Translations under genes and position numbers: made by a program
Shown here: one piece after another, positions 1-4,395 of the stretch
Layout: every line of letters begins with the position of its first letter
Position numbering within the stretch: the first letter of the stretch is position 1
Virus record (IMG/VR): IMGVR_UViG_2778261572_000003
Coordinates: 1-4,395 of that record
Reading direction: 5' to 3' (one strand)
Length of the DNA stretch: 4,395 bases
Source of the DNA: a virus
Lineage: Duplodnaviria; Heunggongvirae; Uroviricota; Caudoviricetes
The notes under the pieces: model-generated
The model's input: the letters and a program-made list of their open reading frames with translations, nothing else
What the model was told of the DNA's origin: nothing
Databases searched by the model: none

Positions 1-16
1 CCTCGTTGGTTAGCTA

Positions 17-235
17 TTAACGTGGGTATGTAATCATTCTGGCAATGCTTAATGCCGCTGCTTTTTCCAGCCTGGTGATATCCTGCTCCAGAGCGGACAG
101 ATTTTCAGCCTGCTTAGCCCTGGCTTCATTGGCCCATTTCAGATCCTGCGCTGCATTAATTTTCTGGCGCATCCACTCATAAAGTTCATCATCGGTATAG
201 TCTGGCGCGATGATGACGGGTTCTCGTTTCTGCAT
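17..235 (-). CDS. Hypothetical small early-left protein, 72 aa, predicted coiled-coil or helical
   Basis: Complete ORF with ATG at 233-235 and TAA at 17-19 on the minus strand. A consensus SD (AAGGAG, read from the complement of 241-246) sits 5 nt upstream of the ATG. The protein is charged and helical (DELYEWMRQKINAAQDLKWANEARAKQAENLSALEQDITRLEKAA). The opposite strand in the same register translates to implausible hydrophobic sequence with a stop. Confidence 0.7.
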   Translation of the reverse strand: MQKREPVIIAPDYTDDELYEWMRQKINAAQDLKWANEARAKQAENLSALEQDITRLEKAAALSIARMITYPR

Positions 236-246
236 GTCGGCTCCTT

Positions 247-274
247 GTGGTTAGCGTTGCCTGCTTTTAACCAC
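247..274. repeat. Inverted repeat GTGGTTA-N14-TAACCAC directly upstream of the SD of the 17..235 gene
   Basis: Arms at 247-253 and 268-274 are perfect reverse complements. The 14-nt spacer is long for a terminator hairpin and there is no U-run, so a protein-binding site or mRNA leader structure is more likely. Confidence 0.3.
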
Positions 275-306
275 GTCAGGCGAGGTGGTATCCTCTGAGG
301 GGTCTG

Positions 307-663
307 TTACTCGAGAGGAAATTGGTTATGGATACAATCAAGTTTTCTTGCCCAGAATGTGGTGGCGAAGTCTTTGACACATCCTTTAAGCCGCAGGGCT
401 CTGACAGTTTCGCGGGAGCCATCTGCAAAAATTGTGGTCACCTTGTAACTGAAGATTAGTCCTCGCAGTTCGATGACGAAATCGTTGACAATATCTTCGG
501 TGCACTCACCAGAGACTTTCTGAAATAAAGACGCATACCGCTTAGTTACCGCTCTGATAACTCTTACCTGTCCGGCAATGGCGCTGATGTCAATATAAAG
601 CGCCATTGCTGCTTCTTTGCCGATCCCGTGATGCCTTCCATTCTGATGTTTGACTTCGCCCAC
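307..663 (-). CDS. Hypothetical protein, 118 aa from GTG 661-663 (alternative ATG at 604-606 gives 99 aa); coding status uncertain
   Basis: Only long ORF in 300-800. GTG start is preceded by GAGG 8 nt upstream. It lies downstream of a candidate repressor-controlled leftward promoter at 746-774. Against it: 8 of its 10 Arg codons are rare (AGA/AGG/CGG/CGA), and its C-terminal third is exactly antisense, in codon register, to a zinc-ribbon ORF on the plus strand. The neighbouring 17..235 gene also uses rare Arg codons, so codon usage is not decisive. Confidence 0.4.
   Translation of the reverse strand: MGEVKHQNGRHHGIGKEAAMALYIDISAIAGQVRVIRAVTKRYASLFQKVSGECTEDIVNDFVIELRGLIFSYKVTTIFADGSRETVRALRLKGCVKDFATTFWARKLDCIHNQFPLE
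328..459 (+). CDS. Candidate small zinc-ribbon protein, 43 aa (MDTIKFSCPECGGEVFDTSFKPQGSDSFAGAICKNCGHLVTED), nested antisense in the 307..663 ORF
   Basis: ATG at 328 with GAGAGGAA (313-320) upstream, TAG at 457-459. Two CxxC knuckles (C8/C11 and C33/C36) are spaced as in a zinc ribbon. Codon choice is E. coli-like (GAA, GGT, GGC, CCG, CAG, ATC, AAA). No convincing sigma70 promoter was found in 236-327, and it lies inside a putative leftward operon, so it remains a candidate only. Confidence 0.3.
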   Translation: MDTIKFSCPECGGEVFDTSFKPQGSDSFAGAICKNCGHLVTED

Positions 664-745
664 TGAGAAATCCTCTGTTTCCCCTTAACGCCGGGGTGGC
701 GGAACTTTAGCCTGACAACGATGCGGTTCGTTGTTGATGGAATGA

Positions 746-797
746 ATGGTAAAACTATTGGTTTTATTGGTCAATAGGTAATGGAACATAAAGTTTT
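746..797 (-). promoter_or_regulatory. Putative repressor-controlled leftward (pL-like) promoter with two operator copies
   Basis: On the minus strand: -35 TTGACC (complement of 769-774), 17-nt spacer, -10 TACCAT (complement of 746-751). The spacer contains AAAACTATTGGTTTT (751-765), 14/15 identical to the operator at 1293-1307. A second, weaker AAC-N5-GTTTT site is at 785-797. Tandem TATTGGT repeats sit at 755-761 and 764-770. Confidence 0.45.
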
Positions 798-809
798 ATT
801 TGTGAGGAT

Positions 810-837
810 AAAAAAAGCGCCAAGGAGGCGCTTTTTT
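810..837. terminator. Bidirectional rho-independent terminator ending the repressor transcript
   Basis: A7 (810-816), stem GCGCC (817-821), loop AAGGA, stem GGCGC (827-831), T6 (832-837). It starts 9 nt beyond the repressor stop (846-848). The perfect symmetry makes it usable on both strands. Confidence 0.8.
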
Positions 838-845
838 CATGTAAC

Positions 846-1256
846 TTATTGTTTTTGAATATCATTGATTATGTCGTATACATCGTTTTTTAGAAGATCC
901 ATTTCATGAAGAATGCTTTTTGTGTGCATGATTAGTCTCAGCTTTTCCGTTTCTGGCAACTGATTAAAAAGGGACAATAGCGCCTTTTCTTTGTCGTCAA
1001 GCTGGATTAGTGGTGGTGCATCTTCTTCCTTTGAATGTTCATTTAGCGGCATAAAAAACCAATGTTCTGGTTTTCCTGTTACTGCGGCAAGTCTTTTTAA
1101 TCTTTCTCCGCTGGCAATGGTTTCTCCTGTTGCCCACTTACGCACAGCGGTATGGGACAGCATAACCTTTTTAGCCAGACCGGCTAACGACCAGCCATGT
1201 TCGCTCATTGCTTGCCGAACTCTCTCAGCAAATATTGGATGGTTTATTTTACTCAT
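846..1256 (-). CDS. Prophage repressor, XRE-family HTH, DicA/RacR-like short type without a peptidase S24 domain
   Basis: 136 aa. An HTH is visible at about residues 22-42 (SLAGLAKKVMLSHTAVRKWATGE). The C-terminal segment LLSLFNQLPETEKL resembles the DicA-type C-terminus as I recall it. It faces the Cro-like gene across an operator-rich intergenic region. There is no SD, and a TATACT -10 lies about 7 nt upstream of the ATG, consistent with a leaderless mRNA. Confidence 0.85.
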   Translation of the reverse strand: MSKINHPIFAERVRQAMSEHGWSLAGLAKKVMLSHTAVRKWATGETIASGERLKRLAAVTGKPEHWFFMPLNEHSKEEDAPPLIQLDDKEKALLSLFNQLPETEKLRLIMHTKSILHEMDLLKNDVYDIINDIQKQ

Positions 1257-1368
1257 TTTTTAAGTATACAACCAAAGGTTTCACCAATCAGCAAAACTAT
1301 AGGTTTTGTGTTGAAACTTATAGTTTTTGATGGTAGCGTAGGTGAAATTAATAGTACTGGTGGAAAGT
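1257..1368. promoter_or_regulatory. Divergent promoter/operator region (pRM-like leftward, pR-like rightward) with three related operator sites
   Basis: Operators of form AAAAC-N5-GTTTT: AAAACTATAGGTTTT (1293-1307), AAACTTATAGTTTTT (1314-1328), and a degenerate copy ACAACCAAAGGTTTC (1268-1282, 11/15). Centres are 21-25 bp apart. Rightward candidate: -35 TTGAAA (1311-1316), 17-bp spacer, extended -10 TGgTAGCGT (1331-1339). Leftward candidate: -10 TATACT (complement of 1263-1268) with a weak -35. Confidence 0.65.
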
Positions 1369-1644
1369 ATGAGTAATCAAATTCACGATAAGATCTCTAA
1401 AAAAATGTCGAAAACTGACATTGGCAAACACTTTGGCATTAGCTCCCAGGCCGTAGGCAAGTGGTTCATTAAAGGCAAGGTTCCTGCTGAACGCGTGTCG
1501 TCACTCTGTGCATTACTGAATTGGGAAATTACTCCCCACGAACTTCGCCCTGACATTTATCCCAACCCAACAGATGGACTACCTTGTGGAAATAAGTGTA
1601 TGTCGAATGAATCACTGGCGGTGAACAATGATATTCACTCCTGA
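1369..1644 (+). CDS. Cro-like / YdaS-family HTH protein, 91 aa from ATG 1369
   Basis: HTH (IGKHFGISSQAVGKWF) followed by the HELRPD motif I associate with the YdaS/Cro-like family. ATG 1369 is preceded by GGTGG (1359-1363). The ORF-track start at 1342 (GTG) lies upstream of the predicted transcription start, so 1369 is preferred. An ATG at 1405 is also possible but has no SD. Stop TGA at 1642-1644 overlaps the next gene. Confidence 0.75.
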   Translation: MSNQIHDKISKKMSKTDIGKHFGISSQAVGKWFIKGKVPAERVSSLCALLNWEITPHELRPDIYPNPTDGLPCGNKCMSNESLAVNNDIHS

Positions 1645-2149
1645 GCAGGCTCGCGAGGCTCTGGATGCCTGGGTATGCCGACCAGGAATGACGCAGGAGC
1701 AGGCGACGATATTAATCACGGAAGCATTCTGGGCTCTGAAAGAACGCCCGAACATCGATGTTCAACGCGTCACGTTTGATGATGGCGCGGTTGATCAACG
1801 GGCGCTGGGCGTTAACCGGGTGAAGATATTCGAACGCTGGAAAGCGATCGACACCAGGGATAAGCGGGAAAAATTCACGGCGTTGATTCCGGCAATCATG
1901 GAGGCTATCCGGATAAGTGATTTCAGGTTGTATTGTGAAATTACTGATGGAAAAAGCATTACGTACATGCTCGCCGGGTTAAATAAAGAATATGGCGATG
2001 TGGTGGAGTCCGGTCTGCTTTTGGCAGATCCCGCTGTTGTGGAGCGCGAGACTGACGAGCTTATAGAAAAAGCTATTGCTTTCAAGCATGCGTATCGTCA
2101 GCAATATCAACAAAAAGCCGGATGGAATTATGAGTCTTCTTTTTGCTGA
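1628..2149 (+). CDS. YdaT-family protein (CII-position regulator; annotated in databases as putative toxin YdaT), 173 aa
   Basis: Sits second in the rightward operon with a 17-nt overlap onto the Cro-like gene. The segment KIFERWKAIDTRDKREKFTALIPAIMEAI matches my recollection of the conserved YdaT core. The family call is from memory, not a search. Confidence 0.7.
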   Translation: MIFTPEQAREALDAWVCRPGMTQEQATILITEAFWALKERPNIDVQRVTFDDGAVDQRALGVNRVKIFERWKAIDTRDKREKFTALIPAIMEAIRISDFRLYCEITDGKSITYMLAGLNKEYGDVVESGLLLADPAVVERETDELIEKAIAFKHAYRQQYQQKAGWNYESSFC

Positions 2150-3095
2150 ACGCCCACTGGTTATTAACACGCAGCTGGCGATGAAAATTGGTCTGAACGA
2201 AGCCATCGTGTTGCAGCAGCTGCATTACTGGTTGAGAGATACCGGTTCCGGCATGGAATGTGATGGTGTTCGCTGGATTTATAATACAACAGAACAATGG
2301 CTGGAACAGTTCCCGTTCTGGTCAGAGTCAACGTTAAAACGCGCATTTGCAAGTCTGAAAGCGCTGGGGCTTTTGCGTTGCGAAAAGCTCAACAAATCAA
2401 AGCGTGACATGACTAATTTTTACACGATTAATTACGAGAGCGAGCTTTTAGATGGTGGCAAAGTGAGCGAATCCATCAGGTCAAAATGCGCCGCTCCATC
2501 AGGTCAAAATGACACGATGGAAGAGGCCAAAATGACACGCTCCATTGGTTCAAAACGACACAATGTCATCGGGTCAAAATGGCCTGATGATCTTACAGAG
2601 AATACAACAGAGATTACTACAGAGAATAAAAACACTTCTCGTCCGGAAGCTTCGCAACCGGACATGCAGACGGCTGAACAGGATTTTTTAAACCGACACC
2701 CTGACGCGGTTGTGTTCAGTGCGAAAAAACGCCAGTGGGGCAGCCAGGAAGATTTAGCGTGTGCGCAGTGGATCTGGGGACGAATCGTGAGTCTTTACGA
2801 GCAGGCTGCCAGCGATGATGGCGAAATCATGCGACCGAAAGAACCCAACTGGACTGCATGGGCCAATGATGTGCGCACAATGCGGATGCTGGATGGCAGA
2901 ACTCACAGACAAATTTGCGAAATGTTTGGTCGGGTACAGCGGGATCCATTCTGGGTAAAAAACGTCATGAGCCCGTCAAAGCTTCGCGAAAAATGGGATG
3001 AGCTGGTTATTCGTCTGGGGCGTTCACCTGTACAGCGTTGCGTGAATCACATTTCTGAACCGGACACCGAAATTCCGCCGGGATTCAGGGGGTAA
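2130..3095 (+). CDS. Replication initiation protein, lambda O-like / YdaU-position, 321 aa from ATG 2130
   Basis: The ORF opens at 2076, but 2130 is the first ATG that minimises overlap with the upstream gene, giving a 20-nt overlap. The N-terminal domain looks like a winged-helix DNA binder. The gene contains five 23-bp iterons and an adjacent AT-rich repeat block, as lambda ori sits within O. It is immediately followed by a DnaC-like loader. Confidence 0.8.
   Translation: MSLLFAERPLVINTQLAMKIGLNEAIVLQQLHYWLRDTGSGMECDGVRWIYNTTEQWLEQFPFWSESTLKRAFASLKALGLLRCEKLNKSKRDMTNFYTINYESELLDGGKVSESIRSKCAAPSGQNDTMEEAKMTRSIGSKRHNVIGSKWPDDLTENTTEITTENKNTSRPEASQPDMQTAEQDFLNRHPDAVVFSAKKRQWGSQEDLACAQWIWGRIVSLYEQAASDDGEIMRPKEPNWTAWANDVRTMRMLDGRTHRQICEMFGRVQRDPFWVKNVMSPSKLREKWDELVIRLGRSPVQRCVNHISEPDTEIPPGFRG
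2472..2584. repeat. Five direct iterons (23-bp period), putative prophage replication origin inside the initiator gene
   Basis: TCCATCAGGTCAAAATG occurs exactly at 2472-2488 and 2495-2511. Related copies have cores GGCCAAAATGACACG (2525-2539), GGTTCAAAACGACAC (2547-2561) and GGTCAAAATGG (2572-2582). Core starts are 2479, 2502, 2525, 2547/2548 and 2572. Confidence 0.8.
2594..2633. repeat. AT-rich block with three 12-bp tandem repeats (ACAGAGA core), candidate DNA-unwinding element next to the iterons
   Basis: The ACAGAGA core recurs at 2595-2601, 2607-2613 and 2619-2625 with a 12-bp period, in an AT-rich stretch immediately downstream of the iterons. It encodes the repetitive peptide LTENTTEITTENKN. 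Confidence 0.5.
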
Positions 3096-3101
3096 CGAAG
3101 C

Positions 3102-3848
3102 ATGAAAAATATTGCGACAGGCGGTGTTCTTGAACGCATCCGTAAGCTGGCTCCGCAGCATGTAACCGCGCCATACCGAACAGTGGACGAGTGGCGCGAG
3201 TGGCAACTTGCAGAAGGCCAGAAGCGTTGCGAGGAGATCAACCGCCAGAATCGTCAGTTGCGGGTGGAAAAAATTCTGAATCGCTCCGGCATCCAGCCGT
3301 TGCACCGCAAGTGCTCGTTTGCGAATTACCAGGTGCAGAATGACGGCCAGCGATACGCGTTGAGCCAGGCGAAATCCATCGCCGATGAACTGATGACCGG
3401 ATGCACAAATTTCGCATTCAGCGGAAAACCTGGTACCGGGAAAAACCACTTAGCGGCGGCTATCGGAAATCGCCTGCTGAAAGATGGCCAGACAGTGATT
3501 GTGGTTACCGTGGCTGATGTTATGAGTGCTCTACACGCCAGCTATGACGACGGGCAATCAGGCGAAAAATTTTTGCGGGAACTGTGCGAAGTGGATCTGC
3601 TGATTCTTGATGAAATTGGCATTCAGCGCGAGACGAAAAACGAGCAGGTGGTACTGCACCAGATTGTTGATCGCCGGACAGCGTCGATGCGCAGCGTGGG
3701 AATGCTGACAAACCTGAACTATGAGGCCATGAAAACGCTGCTCGGCGAGCGGATTATGGATCGCATGACCATGAACGGCGGGCGATGGGTGAGTTTTAAC
3801 TGGGAGAGCTGGCGTTCAAATGTCGGCTATTTGAGGGTTGTTAAGTAA
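3102..3848 (+). CDS. DnaC-family replicative helicase loader (AAA+ ATPase), prophage copy, 248 aa
   Basis: Walker A GKPGTGKN at 3423-3446 and Walker B DLLILDEIG. Similarity to host DnaC, as I recall its sequence, runs along the whole length (MKN..., NRSGIQPLH, CSFANY, FSGKPGTGKNHLAAAI, VDRR, GMLTN, LLGERIMDRM, FNW). SD GGGGG at 3087-3091. Start is 7 nt after the initiator stop. Confidence 0.93.
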   Translation: MKNIATGGVLERIRKLAPQHVTAPYRTVDEWREWQLAEGQKRCEEINRQNRQLRVEKILNRSGIQPLHRKCSFANYQVQNDGQRYALSQAKSIADELMTGCTNFAFSGKPGTGKNHLAAAIGNRLLKDGQTVIVVTVADVMSALHASYDDGQSGEKFLRELCEVDLLILDEIGIQRETKNEQVVLHQIVDRRTASMRSVGMLTNLNYEAMKTLLGERIMDRMTMNGGRWVSFNWESWRSNVGYLRVVK

Positions 3849-3862
3849 TTTCATGAGGGCTT

Positions 3863-4258
3863 ATGGCAAAACCTTTTACACCCGAACAGCGGGAAGAGCT
3901 GAAGGCACGAATTATCGGGTTGGTACGCAAAAATGGACGCATGACGATGTCGCAACTGGAGAGAGCGACGGGAGCTGGCTGGCATTCGGTCCGACGCTGC
4001 CTTGTGGATGTACTGGCTTGTGGTGATTTATACATGTCCGGGGAATACGGTGTTTTTGCATCAGAGCAGGCGTATCGTGAATGGCGTAAGACACCGGAGA
4101 AAACAACTGACCAGACACTGATTCGAAAGTTACCAGACGGAGAAATACGCCGCTACGACAGACACCTGAACATAATTTGCCGTGAGTGCCGGAAGAGTGA
4201 AGTTATGCAGCGAGTGCTGGCGTTCTATCAGGGAGATTTTCAGGAGGTGATGGAGTGA
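3863..4258 (+). CDS. Hypothetical protein, 131 aa, with a possible N-terminal winged-helix-like segment
   Basis: ATG 3863 with AGGG 4 nt upstream. Same strand and tight spacing after the DnaC-like gene. Residues 10-55 (ELKARIIGLVRKNGRMTMSQLERATGAGWHSVRRCLVDVL) look like a wHTH. One CxxC at the C-terminus. No family recognised. Confidence 0.65.
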   Translation: MAKPFTPEQREELKARIIGLVRKNGRMTMSQLERATGAGWHSVRRCLVDVLACGDLYMSGEYGVFASEQAYREWRKTPEKTTDQTLIRKLPDGEIRRYDRHLNIICRECRKSEVMQRVLAFYQGDFQEVME

Positions 4259-4395
4259 GGGTGAGGGTTTATATCGCCGGTCCGATGACCGGGTATAAAA
4301 ATTTCAACCGTGAGGCGTTCCACAAGGCGGAAGAGGAACCGAAACGGGAAGGGCATACAGTCTTAAACCCGGCAGTACTTCCGGACGGACTGACA
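4255..4395 (+). CDS. DUF4406-like (nucleoside 2-deoxyribosyltransferase-like) protein, N-terminal fragment; 3' end beyond window
   Basis: GTG 4255 overlaps the upstream TGA (GTGA at 4255-4258), with AGGAGG at 4242-4247. Translation VRVRVYIAGPMTGYKNFNREAFHKAEEEPKREGHTVLNP matches the YIAGPMTG...NF...F...G..V.NP N-terminal signature I associate with DUF4406. The frame stays open to the window end. The ORF track misses it because no stop is present. Confidence 0.55.
   Translation, partial: MRVRVYIAGPMTGYKNFNREAFHKAEEEPKREGHTVLNPAVLPDGLT

Follow-up and report, generated by a model that had tools for sequence, protein, structure and literature searches.

By what route is a prophage repressor inactivated when it is too short to carry a LexA-type autocleavage domain? 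This question is raised by the gene at positions 846–1256 of a 4,395-nucleotide stretch of DNA, referred to here as the window, that makes up positions 1 to 4,395 of IMG/VR record IMGVR_UViG_2778261572_000003, a virus of the Caudoviricetes. An initial annotation described the product as an N-terminal helix-turn-helix (HTH) followed by a short helical C terminus that leaves no room for a Peptidase_S24 domain, judged RecA-stimulated self-cleavage to be unlikely, and proposed induction through an antirepressor or by another route. The product is likely to be the immunity (lysogeny) repressor of an Escherichia coli lambdoid prophage, of the GtgR/GfoR-DicA class, and, by analogy with the pairs GtgR/GftA, GfoR/GfoA, and DicA/Rem, a Gifsy-class non-cleavable repressor that is probably inactivated by a small antirepressor. 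Non-cleavable, antirepressor-controlled repressors are a known class with many E. coli members; the initial observation is correct, and its interpretation is not new, because a close homologous system has already been characterized experimentally.

Domain architecture and absence of an S24 domain

The open reading frame (ORF) is complete from ATG to stop on the minus strand and encodes 136 residues, organized into a five-helix HTH domain, an acidic linker, and a two-helix C-terminal module. In Pfam, the protein matches HTH-type families only, with HTH_3 aligned to residues 14–67 (E=6.9e-10). No match to Peptidase_S24 was obtained, even at E<=1, from the same library that detects this domain in the positive control, lambda CI, at 6.8e-29 over residues 105–227. 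GtgR, DicA, and 38 relatives of the repressor (0/38) are likewise without a Peptidase_S24 match in this library, and none of the 120 homologues listed has a precomputed S24 domain. About 68 residues remain after the HTH domain, compared with the 116 positions of the S24 profile, and BLASTP of the repressor against lambda CI returned nothing significant. The linker, residues 69–87, contains no Ala-Gly or Cys-Gly scissile bond; the sole Ala-Gly of the protein, residues 25–26, lies within the HTH helix 24–31.

The predicted structure leads to the same description. An AlphaFold2 model built from a 38-sequence alignment (predicted local distance difference test score, pLDDT, 77.8) comprises helices 7–20, 24–31, 35–43, 51–60, and 64–68, followed by helices 88–98 and 102–135, with a disordered stretch, residues 74–82, between the HTH and the C-terminal helices. 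The model is without any β-strand, and thus without a β-rich catalytic fold, and an S24 catalytic domain is absent among the 50 Foldseek matches listed from the PDB. Similar to lambda CI and P22 C2, the protein is an HTH_3 immunity repressor of lambdoid type, with a divergent cro and flanking left and right operators (OL and OR), but it is ~100 residues shorter than these repressors and LexA and has none of the three hallmarks of their class: the S24 domain, the scissile bond in the linker, and the β-rich C-terminal domain with its Ser/Lys dyad. Because there is no S24 protease domain, self-cleavage on RecA filaments is unlikely, and the repressor would be expected to remain uncleaved in vivo. 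The architecture given in the initial annotation is borne out by the HTH_3-only domain content, the all-helical model, and the few residues left after the HTH, and the Peptidase_S24 profile search that it proposed is negative for the repressor and its relatives alike.

The length of the protein has been called in two ways. RefSeq entry WP_001360157.1 gives the repressor as 120 residues from Met17, and public assemblies disagree, with both the 136- and the 120-residue starts in use. Because residues 1–16 (window positions 1209–1256) are conserved across the family, GtgR included, the longer form is preferred and, from this conservation, is very likely correct. In the family alignment, the linker consists of the columns of lowest conservation, and the following columns at its end and in the C-terminal module are invariant: L86, D87, E90, L94, L96, F97, N98, Q99, P101, E102, E104, K105, H111, L122, K123, and V126.

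Relationship to the Gifsy repressors and DicA

Among the 120 homologues listed, from Yersinia, Citrobacter, Klebsiella, Enterobacter, Salmonella, and other genera, most are 133–144 residues in length; a short chain is therefore a trait of the family and not the outcome of truncation. In a tblastn search of phage genomes, the repressors of Gifsy-1 and Gifsy-2 from Salmonella LT2 were 63% identical to the window repressor along its entire length, and the CI of a Klebsiella phage was 55% identical. The Gifsy-2 and LT2 Gifsy-1 repressor, GtgR (also GogR or GftR), aligns with 63% identity over 136 residues (E=3.6e-66). Similar to the window repressor, GtgR has 136 residues arranged as an HTH, a linker, and a conserved helical tail; the recognition-helix regions are nearly identical (LSHTAVRKWATG in the repressor and LSHTSVRKWASG in GtgR), the divergent Cro proteins are homologous, and an AAC-N5-GTT operator core is found on either side of the gene in both. 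The main differences are the host, which is E. coli here, a diverged linker, and the gene content further downstream: the LexA-box/dinI/gftA/irsA module that accompanies GtgR is absent from prophages with the window repressor, to which an unrelated-looking ORF of 70 residues, orf70, is linked instead.

The Gifsy system has been characterized in detail by Lemire, Figueroa-Bossi & Bossi (2011; PMC3121763). The LT2 Gifsy-1 and Gifsy-2 repressor is a 136-residue protein without an autocleavage signature; Gifsy repressors are not cleaved upon induction with mitomycin C, and their protein levels stay stable; induction requires the cleavage of LexA. The link is provided by small antirepressors such as GftA and GfoA, which bind the Gifsy repressor and take it off DNA and which are encoded in a LexA-controlled dinI-antirepressor-irsA operon that lies ~1.3 kb downstream of the replication genes, outside the immunity region. 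GfoA acts on two heteroimmune repressors, GfoR and GfhR, and FsoA of Fels-1 acts on GtgR, so that antirepressors also work across prophages. Homologues were reported in most E. coli genomes, with DicA and RacR named as members of the group (PMC3121763).

The window repressor has the attributes by which Gifsy-type repressors are defined in that work (~135–150 residues, an N-terminal HTH, and no cleavage motif). In addition, it is homologous over its full length to a characterized member, GtgR, and its gene lies in a lambdoid immunity region, diverges from a cro analogue, and has operators on both sides; a LexA-controlled dinI-antirepressor-irsA operon in cis, downstream of the replication genes, was not found. 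Homology and architecture together support the reading of the repressor as non-cleavable, and the earlier suggestion that RecA would not promote its cleavage gains weight from the full-length identity to GtgR, whose class has been shown to be uncleaved (PMC3121763).

DicA, of the cryptic prophage Qin, offers a second comparison. This 135-residue repressor has no Ala-Gly, and repression by it is relieved by Rem, a small antirepressor of Qin; spontaneous derepression of dicBp, independent of RecA, has been reported, and no inducing signal is known for Rem (Ragunathan and Vanderpool; PMC10448788). Together with the GtgR-class antirepressors (PMC3121763), DicA and Rem are a precedent for induction by an antirepressor, one of the routes that the initial annotation had proposed. 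DicA, which controls the leftward ydfABC-dicF-dicB operon, combines HTH_3 with a helical tail bearing the LLELFNALPESEQ motif. Its identity to the window repressor is 30% over 100 residues, however, and the NCBIfam DicA model NF007257 scores the repressor at 47.6 bits, compared with a cut-off of 101; by these scores the repressor is a relative of DicA rather than its orthologue. Phage 186 CI with Tum and N15 CB with AntC (cited in PMC3121763) are similar in that a non-cleavable repressor receives the SOS signal through a LexA-repressed antirepressor gene, but their repressor folds and families are unrelated to that of the window repressor, and the sequences examined here contained nothing resembling Tum or DinI.

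Predicted operators and leftward promoter

The window contains six copies of the core AAC-N5-GTT, compared with 1.19 expected, and none of 200 shuffled sequences reaches six. All six cores flank the repressor gene, in an OR-like cluster on the cro side and an OL-like cluster downstream of the gene. Gifsy-2 has AAC-N5-GTT clusters at equivalent positions (L023 6757–6800 and 7288–7347), and the spacing of its left-hand cores, 33 bp, is close to the 32 bp between the first two left-hand cores of the window. The common core agrees with the near identity of the two recognition-helix regions. As a further observation from the sequences, the window repressor and the Gifsy-2 repressor might recognize each other's operators, which would give partial homoimmunity between E. 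coli and Salmonella prophages. To the left of the repressor gene, a leftward PL-like promoter, found by consensus scan only, overlaps the operator at 751–765 by its coordinates. The hairpin between this promoter and the repressor stop codon probably terminates the repressor transcript ahead of PL; it was read from the sequence, and the terminator scanner gave no call.

Proposed mechanism and the C-terminal module

In the proposed mechanism, a dimeric HTH repressor would bind the AAC-N5-GTT dyads at OL and OR on either side of its own gene and thereby shut both the rightward cro/cII/replication operon and a leftward operon of the PL type. A small antirepressor, encoded elsewhere in the prophage or in another prophage, would then bind the repressor and remove it from DNA. 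Docking would probably involve the conserved C-terminal helices, and the most likely cognate partner would be orf70. The C-terminal helices are proposed as the docking site because the module is conserved across heteroimmune repressors, because GfoA acts on both GfoR and GfhR, and by analogy with the Bacillus subtilis pair SinR/SinI.

The analogy with SinR is one of architecture. In Foldseek searches, the HTH of the repressor superimposes on the N-terminal domains of P22 C2, 434, and SinR with root-mean-square deviations (rmsd) of 0.9–1.7 Å, and the best full-length match is SinR in the SinR/SinI complex (PDB 1b0n). SinR likewise couples an HTH_3 domain to a short helical oligomerization tail, which is captured by a small antirepressor. 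The two proteins are only 15% identical, and the full-length match has E=1.2e-3 and an rmsd of 7.7 Å over 112 columns, so that SinR serves as a useful mechanistic analogy with no evidence of common descent beyond the HTH. In the window repressor, residues 88–135 probably form the dimerization surface and are likely to be the antirepressor docking site.

A candidate antirepressor, orf70

The Gifsy-2 module consists of a LexA box, TACTGTGTTTATATACAGTG, followed by dinI, gftA (73 residues), and irsA. Counterparts were sought in the window, in the entire prophage of E. coli E423 that carries this repressor, and in 20 loci comprising the repressor gene and the 10 kb on either side of it, by tblastn with DinI, GftA, and IrsA and by a weighted LexA-box scan that recovered the sulA and Gifsy-2 boxes as positive controls. 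The E423 prophage is ~45 kb long and apparently complete, lies between yccA and a tRNA-Ser gene, and carries integrase, replication, lysis, head, and tail genes.

The small ORF orf70, which lies outside the window, is present in all 20 repressor-bearing loci with 96–100% identity, even though the DNA that separates it from the repressor is mosaic across these loci. It is located in the nin region, about 6–7 kb downstream of the repressor, a slot that was examined because of the Rem precedent in Qin: orf70 is followed by orf92 and DUF968 genes, and in Qin, rem is directly upstream of a homologous orf92 and ydfU. Rem and orf70 are not demonstrably homologous. In six loci of relatives, including a Citrobacter-type contig (repressor 76% identical to that of the window) and several Salmonella prophages, the orf70 homologue is directly upstream of a homologue of IrsA, a DUF1367 protein (4e-98). 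Both Gifsy-2 and the Klebsiella phage have gftA in exactly this slot upstream of irsA. A near-perfect LexA box, TACTGTATAT(A/G/C)CATACAGT(A/G/T), is found 220–243 bp upstream of the orf70 homologue in four loci (L026, L027, L038, and L097), with a Rho-independent terminator and a −35-like element directly before it; in the Citrobacter locus L027 the box is TACTGTATATACATACAGTA at 6722–6741. The layout of terminator and LexA box mirrors the arrangement reported for the Gifsy operons (PMC3121763).

The company kept by orf70-family genes is also consistent. Among 80 viral contigs with such genes, searches with the C-terminal domains of LexA and lambda CI found no S24-type repressor (0/80), and a short repressor was found in 61, which take in every contig with the full 9 kb of upstream sequence except L039; the remaining 18 have less upstream sequence. 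The longest possible repressor ORF is 132–141 residues in 59 of the 61 contigs and 156 and 164 residues in the other two. Among these repressors are 16 distinct sequences, whose HTH domains differ widely; the LL.LFNQLP tail motif, which is also common to DicA, is present in 59 of the 61. The predicted model of orf70 (pLDDT 84) contains four β-strands and a C-terminal helix, and both orf70 and GftA touch phrog_340, the family of Rem, at E of about 0.2.

Several results weigh against the proposed mechanism and against orf70 as the partner. No homologue of DinI, GftA, or IrsA was found in the window, the whole E423 prophage, or the 20 repressor loci, and no strong LexA box was found in their early regions. 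The initial annotation had stated that no antirepressor is visible in the window, which holds in that neither an antirepressor homologue nor a LexA box was found there; the search that it proposed, for one under LexA control elsewhere in the prophage, yielded no Gifsy-type module in E423 or in the 20 loci. The E. coli copies of orf70 lack an upstream LexA box, so SOS coupling is not evident for prophages of the window type. An hhalign comparison of orf70 with the GftA family gave a collinear but weak similarity (P=7.5e-4, probability 25%), a broad family hidden Markov model (HMM) gave about 3 bits, and BLASTP, PHROGs, hhalign, and the family HMM together gave marginal signals only, by which homology to Rem or GftA is not established. 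A fold search of orf70 against BFVD returned no informative match. Furthermore, the 80 orf70-family contigs represent a handful of lineages, and the linkage statistics overstate their independence. In contig L035, an orf70 identical to the E. coli copy (9001–9210) stands beside a 138-residue repressor (3277–3690) that is 46% identical to that of the window, a pairing that fits broad specificity and also mere co-location.

From this combination of synteny and marginal similarity, orf70 is put forward as a plausible candidate for the cognate antirepressor, with about an even chance of being so, rather than as a finding. A broader proposal is that the orf70 family is an unrecognized antirepressor family that replaces GftA in a terminator/LexA box/antirepressor/irsA cassette, targets the LL.LFNQLP tail, and has become uncoupled from LexA in the E. 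coli prophages with the window repressor, where it adjoins a RelE/HTH toxin-antitoxin pair; this is possible but doubtful. If orf70 is an antirepressor uncoupled from LexA, such prophages would be induced by a non-SOS signal. A LexA box is also missing ahead of most Salmonella orf70 copies. Neither a LexA box nor dinI lies within 1.5 kb of the GftA homologue of the Klebsiella phage, so even true GftA homologues are not always under LexA control.

A number of further observations concern this slot. The L035 and window repressors have a common LLSLFNQLPETEKLRL tail, which is in line with recognition of the tail, and not of the HTH, by the partner. The E. coli orf70 adjoins a divergent RelE/HTH toxin-antitoxin pair (L001 26237–27369), and in four lineages the orf70/rem slot is next to a toxin-antitoxin or hok module, the others being a PIN/Phd pair in Salmonella (L028 9078–10219), hok in L030 (7215–7927), and hokD-relBE beside rem in Qin (L024 12652–13873). 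A 12-mer, ATATACATACAG, upstream of the E. coli orf70 (L001 26970–26989) equals the right half of the LexA box of the Citrobacter homologue and may be a relic or a chance match. That a LexA box was split here by insertion of the toxin-antitoxin pair was considered but is not supported, as the 12-nucleotide identity has an E of about 0.2, flanking homology is absent, and a left half-box is missing beyond the far end of the toxin-antitoxin pair. The 92-residue ORF beside orf70 was rejected as specific to this repressor because it is widespread in nin regions, those of Qin and Gifsy-2 included. A search of genome contigs for further orf70-related loci gave no confirmed locus. In Salmonella, a 283-residue gene of the Rha/Ash family (Pfam Phage_pRha and Phage_ASH) lies in the leftward operon of L028 (465–1316); the prophages with this gene also carry a 132-residue short repressor and an orf70 homologue, so that it would be a second type of antirepressor-like protein. 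Finally, a conserved near-LexA box, TACTGTAAAAATATCCAGTT, is located at the very start of an N6/N4 DNA methyltransferase gene downstream of Q (L001 30577–30596) and also in L003, L004, L006, L010, L011, L014, L017, L018, and L021, where it may be a coding coincidence or a real SOS site.

Alternative explanations

One alternative retains a Gifsy-type repressor and places the antirepressor in trans, on another prophage, in the manner of FsoA of Fels-1 acting on GtgR, with orf70 an unrelated nin gene. Such cross-prophage action is documented (PMC3121763), and it would account for a prophage in which GftA, DinI, IrsA, and a LexA box are all missing in cis and in which the similarity of orf70 to proven antirepressors is marginal; dinI-family modules resembling that of Gifsy are present in 54 of 5,426 E. 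coli genomes. None of the 25 dinI-module genomes listed carries the window repressor, however, and orf70 is linked to it in 20 of 20 loci and holds the gftA slot by irsA in relatives, sometimes after a LexA box. An inducer acting solely in trans is therefore unlikely.

A second alternative dispenses with a dedicated inducer: the locus would be bistable, in the manner of CI/Cro, and would flip either spontaneously or in response to general stress, as has been reported for DicA/DicC in Qin. The spontaneous, RecA-independent derepression of dicBp (PMC10448788), the lack of a LexA box in the E. coli prophages, and the presence of dicB/kilR-type genes in the leftward operon of related loci are all in keeping with such a switch. 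On the other hand, the E423 element looks complete, and the strong conservation of both the C-terminal module and orf70 argues for a regulatory interaction that has been maintained, so that this alternative is judged quite improbable.

A third alternative, inactivation by proteolysis through an ImmA/IrrE-type metalloprotease or host Lon or ClpXP, draws on the fold matches, among which are DdrO and other HTH_3 repressors whose C-terminal domains are helical. IrrE is the protease that cleaves DdrO, and in the window repressor the disordered stretch of the linker, residues 74–82, could be a protease site. The Pfam listings, both for the window and for the 20 loci with their 10-kb flanks, contain no member of the ImmA/IrrE family (COG2856, Peptidase_M78), and the closest characterized homologue keeps stable levels during induction (PMC3121763); proteolysis is accordingly a very unlikely route. 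Lastly, that the ORF is a remnant of a full-length CI/LexA-type repressor shortened by loss of its S24 domain, for which only the short length speaks, is refuted by the nearly uniform length of the listed homologues from many genera and their conserved C terminus with a common end point; the absence of significant similarity to lambda CI and the terminator-like hairpin after the stop codon also speak against it.

An antirepressor-controlled Gifsy-class repressor thus remains the preferred explanation, and the distinction has consequences. The type of repressor decides how a prophage senses host stress; induction by an antirepressor is reversible and allows co-resident prophages to trigger one another, with effects on how virulence and resistance genes carried by prophages spread under DNA-damaging antibiotics. 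At this locus, the annotation is corrected to 136 rather than 120 residues and to a Gifsy-type CI analogue rather than a generic HTH protein, and it would be unsafe to assume RecA cleavage in the style of lambda. These points are of modest practical value; the wider interest lies in which protein and which signal inactivate the E. coli allele, given that the canonical LexA-dinI-gftA module is missing.

Gene content of the window and source prophage

The window is a lambdoid early region in which the cro, CII-like, O-like, DnaC-like, and DUF977/Ren-like genes lie to the right of the repressor and diverge from it (Table 1). The DnaC-like loader also matches NCBIfam PRK12377 at 3.6e-153. An Rfam scan of the window found nothing.

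Table 1. Positions of the features of the window discussed in the text
Feature	Position	Strand	Description
Left dyad	751–765		AAAACTATTGGTTTT; contains core 753–763; just past the terminator-like hairpin of the repressor
PL-like sigma-70 promoter, leftward	746–774	minus	−35 TTGACC 774–769; −10 TACCAT 751–746; consensus scan only
OL-like operator cluster	753–853		downstream of repressor; cores 753–763, 785–795, and possibly 843–853 (overlaps stop codon)
Hairpin GCGCC/GGCGC	808–840	minus	flanking A and T runs; inverted repeat, 14-nt arms, 93% complementary; probable terminator
Immunity repressor gene	846–1256	minus	136 aa; probably Gifsy GtgR-type, CI analogue; stop codon 846–848
Two-helix C-terminal module, conserved	852–995	minus	aa 88–135; motif LD.KE..LL.LFNQLPE.EK...H...LLK..V
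Acidic variable linker	996–1052	minus	aa 69–87; predicted disordered; without Ala-Gly; pLDDT <50 at aa 74–82
HTH DNA-binding domain, five helices	1053–1238	minus	aa 7–68; Pfam HTH_3, AlphaFold2 helices, and Foldseek
OR-like operator cluster	1270–1325		between repressor and cro; AAC-N5-GTT cores 1270–1280, 1295–1305, 1315–1325
15-bp dyads in OR-like cluster	1293–1307; 1314–1327		AAAACTATAGGTTTT; AAACTTATAGTTTT; repeat search
Cro analogue, divergent	1369–1644	plus	91 aa; Pfam YdaS_toxin 5.7e-10; phrog_35 2e-21; similar to Gifsy-2 Cro
CII-like activator analogue	1628–2149	plus	173 aa; Pfam YdaT_toxin 1.5e-5; phrog_163 'CII-like transcriptional activator' 2.4e-40
Replication module	2130–3848	plus	O-like initiator 2130–3095, phrog_391 3e-96; DnaC-like helicase loader 3102–3848, phrog_50 8e-86
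DUF977/Ren-like gene	3863–4258		right of DnaC-like loader

The Pfam names YdaS_toxin and YdaT_toxin are misleading for the genes at 1369–2149, as position and PHROG assignments (a transcriptional repressor and a CII-like activator) indicate regulators and not a toxin pair. The window as a whole is mosaic: none of 5,426 complete E. coli genomes covers 80% of it, and the best matches differ between the immunity module, the segment on its left, and the sequence past the DnaC-like gene. E. coli E423 has the immunity segment, 700–1650, with 100% identity; at least 80% of this segment is covered in only 5 of the 5,426 complete genomes, and the exact repressor protein is widespread among draft assemblies.

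To the left of the immunity module, the segment 307–663 takes the place of ydfA/ydfB at the head of the leftward operon and contains two overlapping candidate genes on opposite strands. The minus-strand candidate is a 99-residue ORF from 606 that matches phrog_21318 at 1.4e-65, and the plus-strand candidate is a 43–45-residue ORF (322/328–459) with a CxxC...CxxC zinc ribbon, which RefSeq names elsewhere as an ECs_2282 family putative zinc-binding protein.

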